A stretch of 32,000 nt of DNA from Fibrobacter succinogenes subsp. succinogenes S85 (GCF_000146505.1 NC_017448.1:3660001-3692000); one strand, 5' to 3'; numbered from the stretch's first letter, positions 15,051 to 25,400 are shown. Notes: generated by a model not told the origin, from the letters alone. Program-made: numbers and translations.

Positions 15051-18000
15051 ATGGAAACAAGTTTTTATTCTTGGATTAGAAAAGGCCTTGGTAGCCAAAT
15101 TAACGAGATTGATAATCTCGGAGAAACATCTGATAAAACTGAAATAATAGATAATGAAGCAAAAAAACGCGCTACAGTACAGCTGACTACAGTTGTTAAA
15201 GCCCGGTTACTTGAATCTGGAGAAACGTCTTCAAATTCTGAATCTGATTCGTCTGATTCAGAGAAGTCAGAAATGGACTTTATTCTTAATGGAATTGATG
15301 AGTCCAATAAAAAGGATGTTCTCAATGCAATTTCTTCATTTGCTAAGGTTAATCTTACTAAAGCGAATGAAATTGTTGATTCACCCAATAGTTTTTTCAG
15401 AAAAACGGTATCAAAAACAGAAGCCGAAACTTTTAAAAATAACCTGAATAAATTAGGTGCGAAGGTTGTTTTGGTGAATGTTGTCACAAGAACGGAATCC
15501 AAAACTATAGCTCTTTCTGGCCCTAGCGATGTTATATCGTTAGATTCTAAAGCAATTGCTCGCGTGTTTCCTACTCCTGATTTTGATGCTTTCCCAAAAG
15601 ATGAATATCCATATGTTGAATTTTGGGAACCTGATTTCGCTTGGCGTTTTACTCCGGCGAAGGCTGCTGAAAATGGAAAGAAATTACGTCCTTGGCTTGC
15701 ACTTGTTGTTTGTGAATCCTCAAAATGTTCTATTGAAAAAACGTCTTGGGGAACTGAACTTGTCACGTTTAATGTTGAAAGTGATGTCGAGTATAAGAAT
15801 GTTTTCCCGAATCCTGCTGATGTATGGTGCATGGCTCACGCTCAGAGTAAAAAGGGCGAGGATGCGGAATTTTGCCGTATTCTTGGTGTGAAAAGTAATG
15901 CTATGGAACGGAATGCTGAATATCGTGCTTTCTTGATTCCTGTTTTTGAAGTCGGTCGACTTAGAGGACTTCGTGGTCCTAATTATGATGAAAATGCAGA
16001 TCAAACTGAACGAAGTCTGAATAATATTGCTGTTCAGACCTCTGCTTGGGAAATTAGTCTTGATGAACAAAAGAAAAAACATGAATCGCCTTTGACTTTC
16101 CCCTCGTATTATTCATGGAATTTTAGAACGGGTGATTTAAGCTTTGTTGAAAAGGTCAGATCTCTCGTATGCAATGATGCAAAGAAAAGTGGAATTGATG
16201 TTGATGTCACTTCTTTGGGTGAAGGCTTGGATTATGCTGTTTTGGCGAAAAAGCCTACTCGCAATAAAATCAATATGCCTGCAGCGTTGACAACGGTTAA
16301 GAGTGCTGCTGAAAGTGCTTTCCCCAATTCAAGTTCTGATGAAAAAGATGTCTATGATCATTTAAATAGTTTACTGTCCAAAAGTCCTGTCTTTGAAGAA
16401 AATGCCAAATTGGTAAGTAACGGATCGAATTCAAATGTTGATAGCGGAGATGATCCGTGGATTACACCACCGATTTATGGTGGTAAACACGTTCTTGCCA
16501 CATCTTTGGATGAGAAGAAAAATGCAAAGACTCCCTGGTTAAATCAGGTTAATTTGGATCTTCACTATCGTGCTGCTGCGGGACTTGGCAAAAAGGCTGT
16601 ACAGAGAAATCAAGAGGAACTTGTAAATCGAGCTTGGAAGCAAATTGATGCTATTAAAACATTAAATGCAGAACTGAATCAAAAAATGCTCAGTACTAAT
16701 GTTAGTGACTCTGTGAAGTATATGAATTACAGTTGGGCAGGGAAAAAAGATGTAGCGATAAATACGAATGATTCTGCAAATAAAATGGTTGTACGGATGA
16801 TGAAGAATCTATCGCTTATGAAAAATACGAAATTTGGAAAGAATAAAAAAGAAAAAGGAACTTCTTTAGCCGATGTTATGGACGCTATGAAAATTCCTGA
16901 CGCTTTTGCATCCATTTCTTTCCAAAATACTACTAAAAAAGCTTTGAAAAAAGATGATGATTCCTCAGTGTTGGGGCTTATTGCGGATAGTCAATGTTAT
17001 AGGAATAACGGTTTGCCTTTTGCGAATACTTTTAATGTTAACAATTTGTCTAGATTCAAGGATTGGCTTCATCCATATCTTTTAAAGTATCTTGTAGTGA
17101 AAACTCCTTTGAATATGTTATTTGAATGGAATGAAAATCAAAGTGTTTTGAATTGTATATCCGTAAAAGCATTAAGCTATGTCTTTAGATATCAGGATTG
17201 TATTAATCGTGTTGAAAATAGAAGTTCGCGAGTCCAATTAGCATGGAACGGTGTTCAAAATTATATAAATACTTTGTATTCTGGTAATAGTCGGCCTGCT
17301 GAATATTTTGCAAATAAAAGATTATGGGAAATTACTACTTATGGGTATACGGAAGAAAGTAATCCGAATTTTAAAAGTAATTATACTAGTTTTCTTGGCG
17401 GAAATGTTAATGTTTATGCGCTAGATAGTTCTGTTTTTAAAGAAATGTTTTATACTAATGGAACTCCGACTGTTGCCAAATTTTATGGATTGAATGGAAA
17501 AAAATCACCAGTGTTTTTTATAGACCGAGATCGAGCTAAAAATGTCTCGTTCTATAGACTGGATGGCAGAGGTAATTTGGAATCTATATCCAATGTTGTA
17601 AATGAAAATTTCCAAAATGTAGGAAGTATTTTGGAAATAAAAAAACGGCAATCTGGGTTTAGTACTGTAGAACAAGAAGCTCTTTTATGTCATGCCACAT
17701 TGTTTATGCCTGATTATGTTTATGTTAAGGAAGCTTATTTGAATAATCAGTGTACTGCCGATTATACCTTTAGTGATATGAATGATTTTTACACAAAAAT
17801 GGCTAAAAAAATCGGTAATCAACATTCAAAATTATACGATGCATGGGTTGAATTGGTGAAAGTGACTACGGCCTATGTTCCTAAAACCGACCCTATTAAG
17901 TCCATACAACGTGATAGTGATGCCTATAATAAGGTTGAGTCTTTGAAAAATGGTCTTAGGGATGATTCTGCATATGCACGATTGAAAGAATGTGCAGATA

Positions 18001-23402: not shown

Positions 23403-25400
23403 ATGAATTCTATTGATTTTTGCACAGATCGCAGTTATTTCACAAAGATTATTAATGGTGATTTTTTAGATAAAGTTTCTTCTACAGAAACATCCATTGG
23501 TTCGAATGGTACCATTAGAATTTTGCCTAGAACTCAGAGTGATCCTAGAGAAACAGCCGATAAGCGTAATGCGGATTACAACAAAGCTTTGTCTATGCAG
23601 CCCTTTGATCCTTTGTGGATGTTGACTCGTCAATGGCAGTTTGGGCGTTTCCAGGGCAATGACTGTGGGTCTCCGATATCGGTGACTGTTCATGCCGTAA
23701 AAAAGAAAATTCGTGATGCTGACCAATCTACGGGTCCGGAATTAAAAGCAGGGCAAAAAGAAGAAGATATTTCTCCAAAGACCCCTTTGGAATACGAAGT
23801 TGAAAAAGTTAATTACGAAATAACTCCGTATGTTCGCGTTGAATGTGCGATGTATCTGAAGAAAATGTTGATTCGAGCTGGCCTTCAAAGTGTAGTTTCC
23901 CAGCTCGAAAAACGATATGCCTTGCCGGATTTTGTTGAAGAGCCTTGGAATACTGCAAATTCTGATAAGGATTCTTTTGCTTTGGAAAGACTTAAGACCC
24001 AGAAGAATAAGGCTTTGAAAAAATTCATTGCTTTTTATGGAAAACGTTCTTTTGATGGTTATAAAGTCTACTTGAGAATGGTTTCAAAATGTCTAGAAAT
24101 TTCTTTGCCATCGAATGAAAAGAAAGCCTTTGATGAAGTTCAGCAGAAGTATATTTCTTGGCTTGAAAAAAAATTCTTGCCAAATAATGCTGGAAAAAAC
24201 CATTGGAGTTCACAAAAGCTTGCATATGAAGCTTCCATGCATGAAGGAAATATTGATTATACAACGGATCAGTATGCATCTGGAACGTTATCTTGGTATT
24301 CATTTGATGCGAAGGAAGATTCTGAAGCGGATGCAAATAAGCGAAATCGTACATCGATTACTAAGGATCTAACGTACGTTCCTACTCCTGCAAAAATTCC
24401 TGGAGCTCCGGCACAAAGGCTTTGGGAGTTTGAAAATCGCAAAGTCACTATGGGTAATGGAGAGGCCGCTCCAGAATATATTGCAACCGCTGTTGTGATG
24501 CAGTATGTTAGCACTTATAGTAATGATTGGATGATTACTCCGCTAGAAACTGAAACTGGTACGGTTCTTGACGTTGAGTATATCGAAGTTAAGAATACTT
24601 TTAATGAAACTTTTAAGATCAATAAAAACGCAGAGGCTGTTGATGGAAATGCGGCTTCCGTTGGCCTGACAAATCGCTGGTGCCTATTTGGTTCTAGCCG
24701 CTCGGATGCTTATGGTGAAAGTGATTTCTCCTGTTGTAAGGGATTACTTTTCCCGCCGACAGTTCTTCGTTGTGAAGAAGGTGCTCCTATTGAAGAAGTG
24801 CAGTTCTTACGCGATGAAATGGCCAATATGCTTTGGGGCGTTGAAACAAAGATTAATGATGGTTGTGGTGGCTTTATGGATGGCCAAACTTTGTCTGATG
24901 CAGTTTTTAAAGAAGTTGATAAACAACGCAAGGATGATAAGAATGCTACAGTTGTCGACGCTAAATATTCTCTGTTGATTCAGAATAGAGTCCCGCTGAA
25001 CTGGATTCCGTTCATTCCTGAACAGCTAGAAAATGGACGTGATATTATATTCCGCCGAGGCAGAATGCCGATTTATTACAAGTGTGCTGATGATAAGGAT
25101 AATGATGGGTATAAGTCTGTTCGTCCATCGACAAATCTTTTGGCCGTTGAACGTGATGGTAAAAAGGTAAAGCCGTTCTACATAAATGAAGATCAAATTG
25201 GCGGTTATGGCATCAAAGTCACCAAGACTCCTCAGCGTACTAGATGGTTTATGGGAGCCACCTTTAACTGGATTGGTAATCGTAAAATCATCAGCGAATA
25301 TCAGGCAAATAGTGGTCTGATGTTTGATGAACTGCTGAAGAAGGATGATGGTAGCGTAAATGTCGGAAGAAAAGATAAAGCGGAGGATAAAAAGGGGTAG
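23403..25400 (+). CDS. ~665-aa hypothetical protein, last gene of the operon
   Basis: ATG 23403 is preceded by GAGAGGG; the track start is GTG 23397. Motif FDPLWMLTRQWQFGRFQGNDCGSPISV. No signal peptide, TM segment or catalytic motif recognised. Confidence 0.88.
   Translation: MNSIDFCTDRSYFTKIINGDFLDKVSSTETSIGSNGTIRILPRTQSDPRETADKRNADYNKALSMQPFDPLWMLTRQWQFGRFQGNDCGSPISVTVHAVKKKIRDADQSTGPELKAGQKEEDISPKTPLEYEVEKVNYEITPYVRVECAMYLKKMLIRAGLQSVVSQLEKRYALPDFVEEPWNTANSDKDSFALERLKTQKNKALKKFIAFYGKRSFDGYKVYLRMVSKCLEISLPSNEKKAFDEVQQKYISWLEKKFLPNNAGKNHWSSQKLAYEASMHEGNIDYTTDQYASGTLSWYSFDAKEDSEADANKRNRTSITKDLTYVPTPAKIPGAPAQRLWEFENRKVTMGNGEAAPEYIATAVVMQYVSTYSNDWMITPLETETGTVLDVEYIEVKNTFNETFKINKNAEAVDGNAASVGLTNRWCLFGSSRSDAYGESDFSCCKGLLFPPTVLRCEEGAPIEEVQFLRDEMANMLWGVETKINDGCGGFMDGQTLSDAVFKEVDKQRKDDKNATVVDAKYSLLIQNRVPLNWIPFIPEQLENGRDIIFRRGRMPIYYKCADDKDNDGYKSVRPSTNLLAVERDGKKVKPFYINEDQIGGYGIKVTKTPQRTRWFMGATFNWIGNRKIISEYQANSGLMFDELLKKDDGSVNVGRKDKAEDKKG

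Follow-up and report, generated by a model that had tools for sequence, protein, structure and literature searches.

Results

Four Large Genes Form a Unit in Fibrobacter succinogenes S85

We analyzed a 32,000-nucleotide stretch of the Fibrobacter succinogenes subsp. succinogenes S85 genome (NC_017448.1:3660001-3692000; hereafter the window, with positions counted from its first letter), and in particular three closely packed genes whose products, of 1265, 1512, and 665 aa, we call P1, P2, and P3. All three open reading frames (ORFs) are present on the plus strand and are separated by gaps of 1 nt and 14 nt. An earlier note, made from the sequence alone, had treated this trio as the unit. The three genes are real, but we found that the actual unit is a quartet in which a gene for a DUF6603 protein precedes P1, P2, and P3, and that this quartet is accompanied by a variable slot. 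The core genes of the window are:

7307..12580, plus strand: DUF6603 protein, Fisuc_2602, 1757 aa; first core gene, with the Pfam domain PF20248 at aa 1137-1689 (E 2.5e-97)
15051..18848, plus strand: P1, Fisuc_2604/FSU_3173, 1265 aa; second core gene
18850..23388, plus strand: P2, Fisuc_2605/FSU_3174, 1512 aa; third core gene and the largest of the trio
23403..25400, plus strand: P3, Fisuc_2606/FSU_3175, 665 aa; fourth core gene

P3 matches Fisuc_2606/FSU_3175 of S85 with 100% identity, and the other genes were named by exact look-up. At the P1/P2 junction, the TAA stop codon (18846-18848) is followed by a single T and then by the ATG at 18850; at the P2/P3 junction, the TAA (23386-23388) is followed by 14 nt that include GAGAGGG and then by the ATG at 23403. 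Alternative starts would lengthen P2 to 1517 aa (TTG at 18835) and P3 to 667 aa (GTG at 23397). The DUF6603 protein of S85 has a long helical N-terminal extension before its DUF6603 domain, and its gene lies upstream of P1, but here a gene for a 796-aa protein intervenes, an insertion that is found in none of 82 other loci.

The peptide motifs that had been picked out in the trio were all found in the translations at the places given for them. They are LSGPSDVISLD (aa 155-165) and KLRPWLALVV (aa 210-219) in P1; FPLRLETRFF (aa 20-29), IGDLPYGFLPVS (aa 537-548), RLDAWFNG (aa 701-708), and HALSAAVLRSAYL (aa 756-768) in P2; and FDPLWMLTRQWQFGRFQGNDCGSPIS (aa 68-93) in P3.

The Motifs and the Gene Order Are Conserved across Distant Phyla

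Database searches returned 112 homologs of P2, which reach down to approximately 22% identity and were aligned over their full length, and 99 homologs of P1. In a collection of 1.84 billion clusters (50% identity), a P3 profile matched 4025 representatives, and for 1388 the E value was 1e-30 or less. The consensus of the P2 alignment contains LFPxRLETRF, QPYGxLPVT, YRLDAWxTG, and HAxTAAVLRxxYL, and the corresponding motifs of P1 and P3 are LyGPGDi.GId, rLrPWi.LvVl, and DaLWMLtrQWQ.GEF.G.DAGSp. P2 of the window has all four of LFPxRLETRF, QPYGxLPV, RLDAW, and AAVLR, and these columns are invariant or nearly so in alignments of 31 and 70 homologs. The motifs quoted from the window are not due to chance; when distant homologs, with 20-25% identity overall, are aligned, no columns are better conserved. 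The earlier note had pointed to similar motifs in multi-gene clusters of distant phyla, and the consensus matches the strings that it listed nearly letter for letter.

In a scan of one genome per species, relatives of P2 were found at 570 loci or more, in at least 12 bacterial phyla. The phyla were read from 80 of these loci and comprise Bacteroidota, Chloroflexota, Gemmatimonadota, Actinomycetota, Nitrospirota, Acidobacteriota, Myxococcota, Planctomycetota, Pseudomonadota, Cyanobacteriota, Bacillota, and candidate phyla. We identified ORFs in 82 loci and compared them with the proteins of the window. P1 was present in 79 of the 82, P3 in 75, and DUF6603 in 71, and the loci that lack one of these genes are cut by contig ends. 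Wherever the upstream sequence suffices, which is the case in 71 loci, DUF6603 lies upstream of P1, an association that had been put forward for checking. The order DUF6603-P1-P2-P3 on a single strand is invariant: it is seen in all 55 complete loci and also in the remainder, where some genes are split or truncated. Homologs of the trio thus extend well past closely related species, and they are found together.

The commonest junctions are a 4-nt overlap between DUF6603 and P1, and anything from an 8-nt overlap to a 6-nt gap between P2 and P3; large negative gaps in our junction table are an artifact of taking the first possible start codon. In one metagenomic protein (P0511, 2421 aa), P2 (aa ~188-1798) and P3 (aa 1821-2420) are naturally joined in a single chain. 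The suggestion that translational coupling leads to stoichiometric production of the proteins is made more plausible by the prevalence of small gaps or 4-8 nt overlaps in other phyla and by the existence of this fusion, and such coupling may operate in S85. P1 is encoded by two consecutive ORFs in a Prevotellaceae and a Chloroflexia genome (loci L004 and L009; 586 and 560 aa, and 563 and 410 aa, respectively), which suggests either that P1 has two separable halves or that these assemblies contain frameshifts.

Homologs of P3 are carried on megaplasmids of Streptomyces, Gemmatirosa, Rhizobium, and four haloarchaea. A plasmid of Salinigranum marinum (NZ_CP100462.1, 334581-354217; locus L086) has the whole operon, in the order PhoD-like, DUF6603, P1, P2, P3, which implies transfer between bacteria and archaea. 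Genes of the AbiE and PIN toxin-antitoxin types lie downstream of this haloarchaeal operon. We conclude that DUF6603-P1-P2-P3 is a conserved, co-inherited, tightly packed, and horizontally mobile four-gene module.

A Variable Enzyme Slot Precedes DUF6603

In 47 loci, a gene on the same strand as DUF6603 ends between 53 nt inside and 71 nt before the DUF6603 gene; in 42 of the 47, it ends between 14 nt inside and 51 nt before it. The genes in this slot belong to at least eight unrelated families, and we detected no signal peptide among the N termini that were inspected. The enzymes identified by Pfam include:

Subtilase S8: 8 loci
PhoD-like phosphatase: 5 loci
Peptidase M64: 4 loci
Phospholipase D: 3 loci
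Trypsin-like protease: 3 loci
Tyrosinase: 2 loci

Complete five-gene operons occur, for instance, in Dinghuibacter silviterrae and Paenibacillus sp. OV219.

The S8 and trypsin-like slot enzymes, whose catalytic folds are unrelated, have in common a domain of approximately 125 aa at the extreme C terminus, after the catalytic domain. It contains the motif L[IV]N[TS]N[RK]RVAxxWHRxxGP and has no Pfam match. The domain occurs in loci L012, L021, L022, L054, L063, L070, L075, and others, as well as in the metagenome loci L091-L144, and the protease genes that carry it often lie in tandem pairs. As a reverse test, we scanned metagenomes with the ~125-aa domain alone and recovered 54 loci. Among the 31 of these with at least 1.5 kb of downstream sequence, 27 have DUF6603 directly downstream, followed by P1 and P2. 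By this measure, the domain is close to specific to the module, which is what one would anticipate of a docking or adaptor domain. A universal adaptor present on all payloads was considered and rejected, as only the S8 and trypsin-like enzymes carry the domain.

Beyond the slot, the flanks are heterogeneous: 125 Pfam families occur in 148 flanking ORFs, and the 25 most frequent of these families show no defense-island signature. A gene for a T4 gp19-like tail-tube protein (PF06841) lies less than 4 kb from the module in 2 of the 80 genome loci, and it possibly belongs to an adjoining contractile injection system.

Core Proteins Carry Lineage-Variable Domains

In some lineages, extra domains are fused to the N termini of the core proteins, and further ones occur elsewhere in them. 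Haloarchaeal P3 proteins have two C-terminal lamin-tail (LTD) domains, and haloarchaeal P2 proteins have halo_surf_dom in a variable region. Bacterial homologs with tachylectin, VCBS (from precomputed Pfam assignments), and helix-hairpin-helix domains were also found. In a gut/rumen clade, to which S85 belongs, approximately 10% of the homologs of P1 and P2 are fused to EF-Tu and/or the C-terminal domain of the RNA polymerase alpha subunit (P2 homologs P0029-P0050 and P1 homologs P0126-P0158; loci L084 and L088). The EF-Tu fusions contain full EF-Tu, at times duplicated, and begin with an authentic EF-Tu N terminus, but the G1 and G3 GTPase motifs are gone in most copies. At one locus (L088), EF-Tu is present on both P1 and P2.

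P1 of the window itself carries a domain of this kind:

15276..15473, plus strand: bL12 (L7/L12) C-terminal domain, aa 76-141 of P1; matched by Pfam Ribosomal_L12, by TIGR00855, and by bL12 chains in the PDB

The Pfam match (PF00542) has an E value of 3.4e-8 and a score of 34.1 bits, against a gathering cut-off of 25.9. The domain follows the N-terminal motif and a linker rich in Ser, Asp, and Glu and precedes the LxGPxD motif. It is absent from most P1 homologs; the nearest ones fall short of P1 by approximately 70 aa and align to 89% of it, consistent with their being without the domain. This is a matter of domain membership, and P1 is not a ribosomal protein; the NCBI label for the 1265-aa protein, "ribosomal protein L7/L12," is misleading. 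The bL12 domain of S85 P1 belongs to the same series as the EF-Tu and RNA polymerase alpha fusions.

The Core Proteins Match No Known System

We compared all seven proteins encoded by the S85 island that contains the module with Pfam, NCBIfam, PADLOC, and PHROGs. The only families recovered were DUF6603 and the bL12 C-terminal domain; apart from the latter domain in P1, none of P1, P2, and P3 matched a family. The statement that the trio has no recognizable catalytic site was upheld, as these libraries revealed no enzymatic domain in it. Specifically, the core proteins contain no ATPase, GTPase, or other catalytic family in Pfam or NCBIfam, and a Pfam search of long homologs (23 of P2 and 9 of P3) returned one helix-hairpin-helix domain and nothing else. 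The four core proteins are large and soluble: there is no signal peptide in their translations and no transmembrane helix; the top hydrophobic 19-mer in P1, P2, and P3 scores no higher than 1.14. None of the 5027 models of PADLOC-DB 2.0 matched P1, P2, P3, the 796-aa protein, or the small proteins of the island. The coiled-coil N terminus of the DUF6603 protein gave a weak match to ZorA (E 4.6e-5, 20 bits). The PHROGs scan of the module returned noise only (E>=0.003). Paralogy among the four core families was considered and rejected, as hhalign probabilities were at most 0.2%.

Sequence and profile searches of the PDB with P1, P2, P3, DUF6603, and an accessory domain of the island returned only bL12 and coiled-coil noise. 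We also obtained confident AlphaFold2 models of P3 (mean predicted local distance difference test score [pLDDT] 77, predicted template modeling score [pTM] 0.73) and of P2 aa 1-1200 (pLDDT 83.5, pTM 0.63). A Foldseek search of the PDB with these two models found nothing at E<=1e-3, and the P3 model matched no viral fold in BFVD. The most conserved segments of P3, aa 53-88 and aa 636-647 (the latter a tail with the motif NSGLxFD), are yet the only low-confidence parts of its model, a pattern expected of arms that fold against a partner.

A search of IMG/VR, which holds 2.9 million viral contigs, found no relatives. The lone record labeled as phage (MT835531.1, "UNVERIFIED: Bacteriophage sp."; locus L087) is a 40-kb, high-GC, unannotated contig from a human fecal virome that contains P1-P2-P3. 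Because it is unannotated and has no relative in IMG/VR, it is probably a bacterial contig. With no IMG/VR matches and an unverified phage record, we rejected a phage origin.

A literature search on DUF6603, PF20248, and the Fisuc and FSU locus tags found no paper in the library searched, and proteome and transcriptome supplements held no data on the locus apart from one RNA-sequencing (RNA-seq) table (Burnet et al., 2015). The trio had been guessed to be part of a widespread but uncharacterized module, and this description is apt: its relatives extend from the bacterial phyla listed above to haloarchaeal megaplasmids, and they come with no curated family, solved structure, or paper. Every comparison with a known system was negative, and the module fits no known kind.

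The S85 Module Lies in a Low-GC Island with Lineage-Specific Genes

In 1-kb bins, the GC content is 33-41% at 6-25 kb of the window and 46% in the 5-6 kb bin that contains the left edge of the island, as opposed to 47-55% in the flanks (2-5 kb and beyond 25 kb). The low-GC island extends from approximately 5.6 to 25.4 kb. Its right edge is marked by a tRNA gene that has the island on its 5' side. Besides the core genes, the features of the island and its edge are:

5627..6328, minus strand: accessory protein, 233 aa, identified as an ORF and by translation; C-terminal domain of approximately 110 aa with the motifs NKGAY[IV]AK...Y and C.GTTL; divergently transcribed
6377..7105, minus strand: accessory protein, 242 aa; paralog of the preceding protein, with 75% identity across the common domain
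12626..15016, plus strand: 796-aa protein, Fisuc_2603/FSU_3172; lineage-specific, between DUF6603 and P1
25467..25539, plus strand: tRNA-Arg (CCT), identified by ARAGORN; 66 nt past the P3 stop codon

No direct repeat of the ends of the tRNA-Arg gene, as an integration scar would leave, was found elsewhere in the window. A scan for promoters and terminators gave counts equal to those expected from shuffled sequence and was uninformative.

Upstream of DUF6603, S85 has the two divergent accessory genes, in which translation and Pfam revealed no enzyme domain. Their ~110-aa domain is present in four copies, one in each small protein and two in the 796-aa protein, which also contains three repeats of approximately 90 aa (VLNAPK..., ...CDV.LADGTKL). 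Homologs of the accessory domain lie beside the module of Fibrobacter sp. UWB11 in the same position. In 82 loci from other phyla, we found no homolog of the accessory family or of the 796-aa protein. The domain has no Pfam or PDB match, and the 796-aa protein has no Pfam family above the cut-off. A possible resemblance of the accessory domain to domain 4 of the cholesterol-dependent cytolysins is not supported by sequence: a profile of the four copies found no cytolysin match in the PDB, or in Pfam even at E<=10. The DUF6603 proteins of the gut/rumen clade are longer, at 1750-2150 aa; in compact modules from soil, DUF6603, P1, P2, and P3 measure about 1150, 1100, 1850, and 620 aa, respectively.

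Published RNA-seq data give expression levels for Fisuc_2602-2606 of 2, 4, 4, 8, and 11 reads per kilobase per million mapped reads (RPKM), respectively, on cellulose and 1, 3, 2, 7, and 9 RPKM on glucose, so that these genes span 1-11 RPKM compared with 50-500 RPKM for typical genes (Burnet et al., 2015; PMC4668043, S1 Table). Expression increases from 5' to 3' along the locus, which is nearly silent in pure culture. With its position in a low-GC island beside a tRNA gene and its very low expression, the S85 copy has the character of an accessory locus.

Discussion

A Possible Carrier or Cage for a Variable Enzyme

Our best guess, offered tentatively and at less than even odds, is that the module encodes a carrier or cage that self-assembles, holds a variable enzyme, and acts after release. 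DUF6603, P1, P2, and P3 would be made together and would build one heteromeric assembly that binds the payload. The assembly would keep the degradative slot enzyme harmless within the producer, away from its cytoplasm, and the particle would act once released, probably outside the cell and in a toxin-like or digestive role. The payload would be encoded directly upstream of DUF6603 and would often be a subtilase or trypsin-like protease with the ~125-aa docking domain. At positions exposed on P1, P2, and P3, the assembly would accept lineage-variable decorations (lamin-tail, haloarchaeal surface, tachylectin, VCBS, helix-hairpin-helix, RNA polymerase alpha C-terminal, EF-Tu, and bL12 C-terminal domains), which would serve as binding modules. 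In the S85 version, the enzyme slot is empty, and beta-rich accessory proteins and the bL12 domain of P1 are the lineage-specific parts.

Several of the results point in this direction. The fixed, co-inherited order, the P2-P3 fusion, and the conserved low-confidence segments of P3 argue for a single assembly, and the lack of any NTPase or other catalytic family and of any hydrophobic segment in the trio suggests that the assembly is passive. A variable payload is suggested by the 47 slot loci with their at least eight unrelated families and, among those inspected, no signal peptide. The C-terminal domain of the S8 and trypsin-like enzymes, which lies beside DUF6603 in 27 of 31 metagenome loci, points to a dedicated adaptor. 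The lamin-tail, halo_surf_dom, tachylectin, and VCBS decorations are consistent with an extracellular role, and the absence of relatives in 2.9 million viral contigs indicates that the assembly is not phage-borne. The low-GC setting and the weak expression of the S85 copy also fit, as they mark it as accessory.

Other observations weigh against this proposal. The gut/rumen clade, S85 included, has no upstream enzyme. No domain common to PhoD, M64, phospholipase D-like, tyrosinase, and other slot families and the protease adaptor, or common to these families themselves, could be detected, and genes for lysis, export, or immunity are not conserved near the module. EF-Tu, the RNA polymerase alpha C-terminal domain, and bL12 are cytoplasmic and suit an intracellular role at least equally well. 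The predicted models of P2 (aa 1-1200) and P3 resemble no known cage, channel, or toxin component, and the architecture that we suggest is a guess. We infer the complex, the particle, and its export from genes and predicted models.

Among known systems, the Tc (ABC) toxins of Photorhabdus, Yersinia, and their relatives resemble such a carrier in several respects: they consist of very large proteins encoded by a tight operon, with no signal peptides or ATPases, they deliver a variable degradative or toxic enzyme, and their distribution is patchy and reflects horizontal transfer. However, no Pfam or NCBIfam family that marks Tc toxins matched the module, and the Foldseek searches with P2 (aa 1-1200) and P3 retrieved no Tc component. 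In addition, the payload of the module is encoded by a separate upstream gene and is not the C terminus of a TcC-like protein, and the module is also present in archaea. DUF6603 (PF20248) is the sole curated family that touches the module and is found in every locus with enough sequence, but it is a domain of unknown function on which the literature search returned no paper, and it covers one of the four core proteins.

Alternative Explanations

The principal rival to a released carrier is an intracellular immune complex of the abortive-infection type, which we regard as unlikely but serious. The core would sense an invader, and the slot protease, phospholipase, or phosphodiesterase would kill or arrest the cell. 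Host proteins that are modified by phages would be mimicked by integrated decoys, namely the degenerate EF-Tu, RNA polymerase alpha C-terminal, and bL12 domains. The idea of decoys draws on general knowledge of phage targets. This explanation gives the best fit to the EF-Tu, alpha C-terminal, and bL12 fusions, and the loss of G1 and G3 from most EF-Tu copies is what would be seen in mimics. A variable effector slot beside a conserved core, the lack of signal peptides and transmembrane segments, a patchy and horizontal distribution that includes megaplasmids and a low-GC island, the haloarchaeal copy near AbiE and PIN toxin-antitoxin genes, and very low expression in unchallenged culture are likewise in its favor. 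Several of these features recall defense systems with swappable effectors, such as Avs and the cyclic-oligonucleotide-based antiphage signaling systems (CBASS), in which a conserved core is combined with alternative proteases, phospholipases, or phosphodiesterases and expression is low in the absence of challenge. Unlike those systems, the module lacks a sensor of the NTPase, cyclase, or nuclease type and matches PADLOC only weakly, between the DUF6603 coiled coil and ZorA, and its heterogeneous flanks (148 ORFs; the 25 most frequent of 125 Pfam families) do not resemble a defense island. Moreover, tyrosinase, M64, and PhoD payloads and lamin-tail, halo surface, and tachylectin decorations are typical of extracellular proteins.

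It is less probable still that the module forms a scaffold or compartment within the cell, one that confines a hazardous enzyme for regulated use by the cell itself and never releases it, in the manner of giant cytosolic protease complexes or encapsulin-like compartments. The module and the encapsulins are alike in having a cargo gene directly upstream, a C-terminal extension of the cargo that is nearly confined to this context, and N-terminal fusions on the structural subunits, and a scaffold would also account for the absence of export signals. The differences are considerable, however. The module has four subunits of 600-2000 aa instead of one protein of approximately 30 kDa with the HK97 fold; no encapsulin or shell family of Pfam was found in P1, P2, and P3, and the modeled subunits, P2 (aa 1-1200) and P3, show neither an HK97-like nor any other known shell fold and have no fold match in the PDB. 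The cargo of the module consists of proteases, PhoD, phospholipase D, and tyrosinase, and the cage is in this case a proposal. The surface-type domains fused in archaea and in some bacteria fit poorly with a permanently intracellular structure, and an accessory, horizontally transferred, and near-silent locus speaks against a housekeeping role.

An envelope-spanning machine that secretes or translocates the slot enzyme would explain why enzymes from families that are usually secreted have no signal peptides, but it is highly improbable, as the core has no transmembrane helix, lipoprotein signal, signal peptide, or energizing ATPase, and the same four proteins occur in diderms, in monoderms (Paenibacillus, Actinomycetota), and in archaea, whose envelopes are fundamentally different. 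The type VI secretion system and extracellular contractile injection systems resemble the module in placing a conserved apparatus beside a variable effector slot and in joining unrelated enzymes to a system-specific adaptor. In contrast to these systems, P1, P2, and P3 include no sheath, tube, baseplate, spike, or ATPase component detectable with Pfam or PHROGs, and the module has neither a conserved immunity gene nor a relationship to phages. The probability that remains falls to something else.

Implications

Each locus encodes approximately 4,500-5,500 conserved residues in a fixed order, and the module is present in hundreds of species, which include soil, water, gut, and rumen bacteria as well as haloarchaea. 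Taken as a whole, it could well represent, although we stop short of calling this probable, an unrecognized class of ATP-independent multiprotein machine that comprises four families with new folds, is loaded with enzymes via a docking domain, and carries swappable binding or mimic domains. If so, it would constitute a protein container or toxin particle of a new kind, distinct from Tc toxins, encapsulins, phage-tail devices, and the named secretion and defense systems.

The enzyme slot, the near-module-specific docking domain, and the recurrent EF-Tu, RNA polymerase alpha, and bL12 fusions provide experimental handles. If the proteins form a carrier or cage, the module would add an architecture to the few ATP-independent systems for delivery or compartmentation and would offer a chassis for protein packaging. 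If they instead form an immune complex, it would be a new type of sensor with integrated decoys. Under either reading, three large protein families would gain a function, and the module is a strong candidate for experimental characterization.

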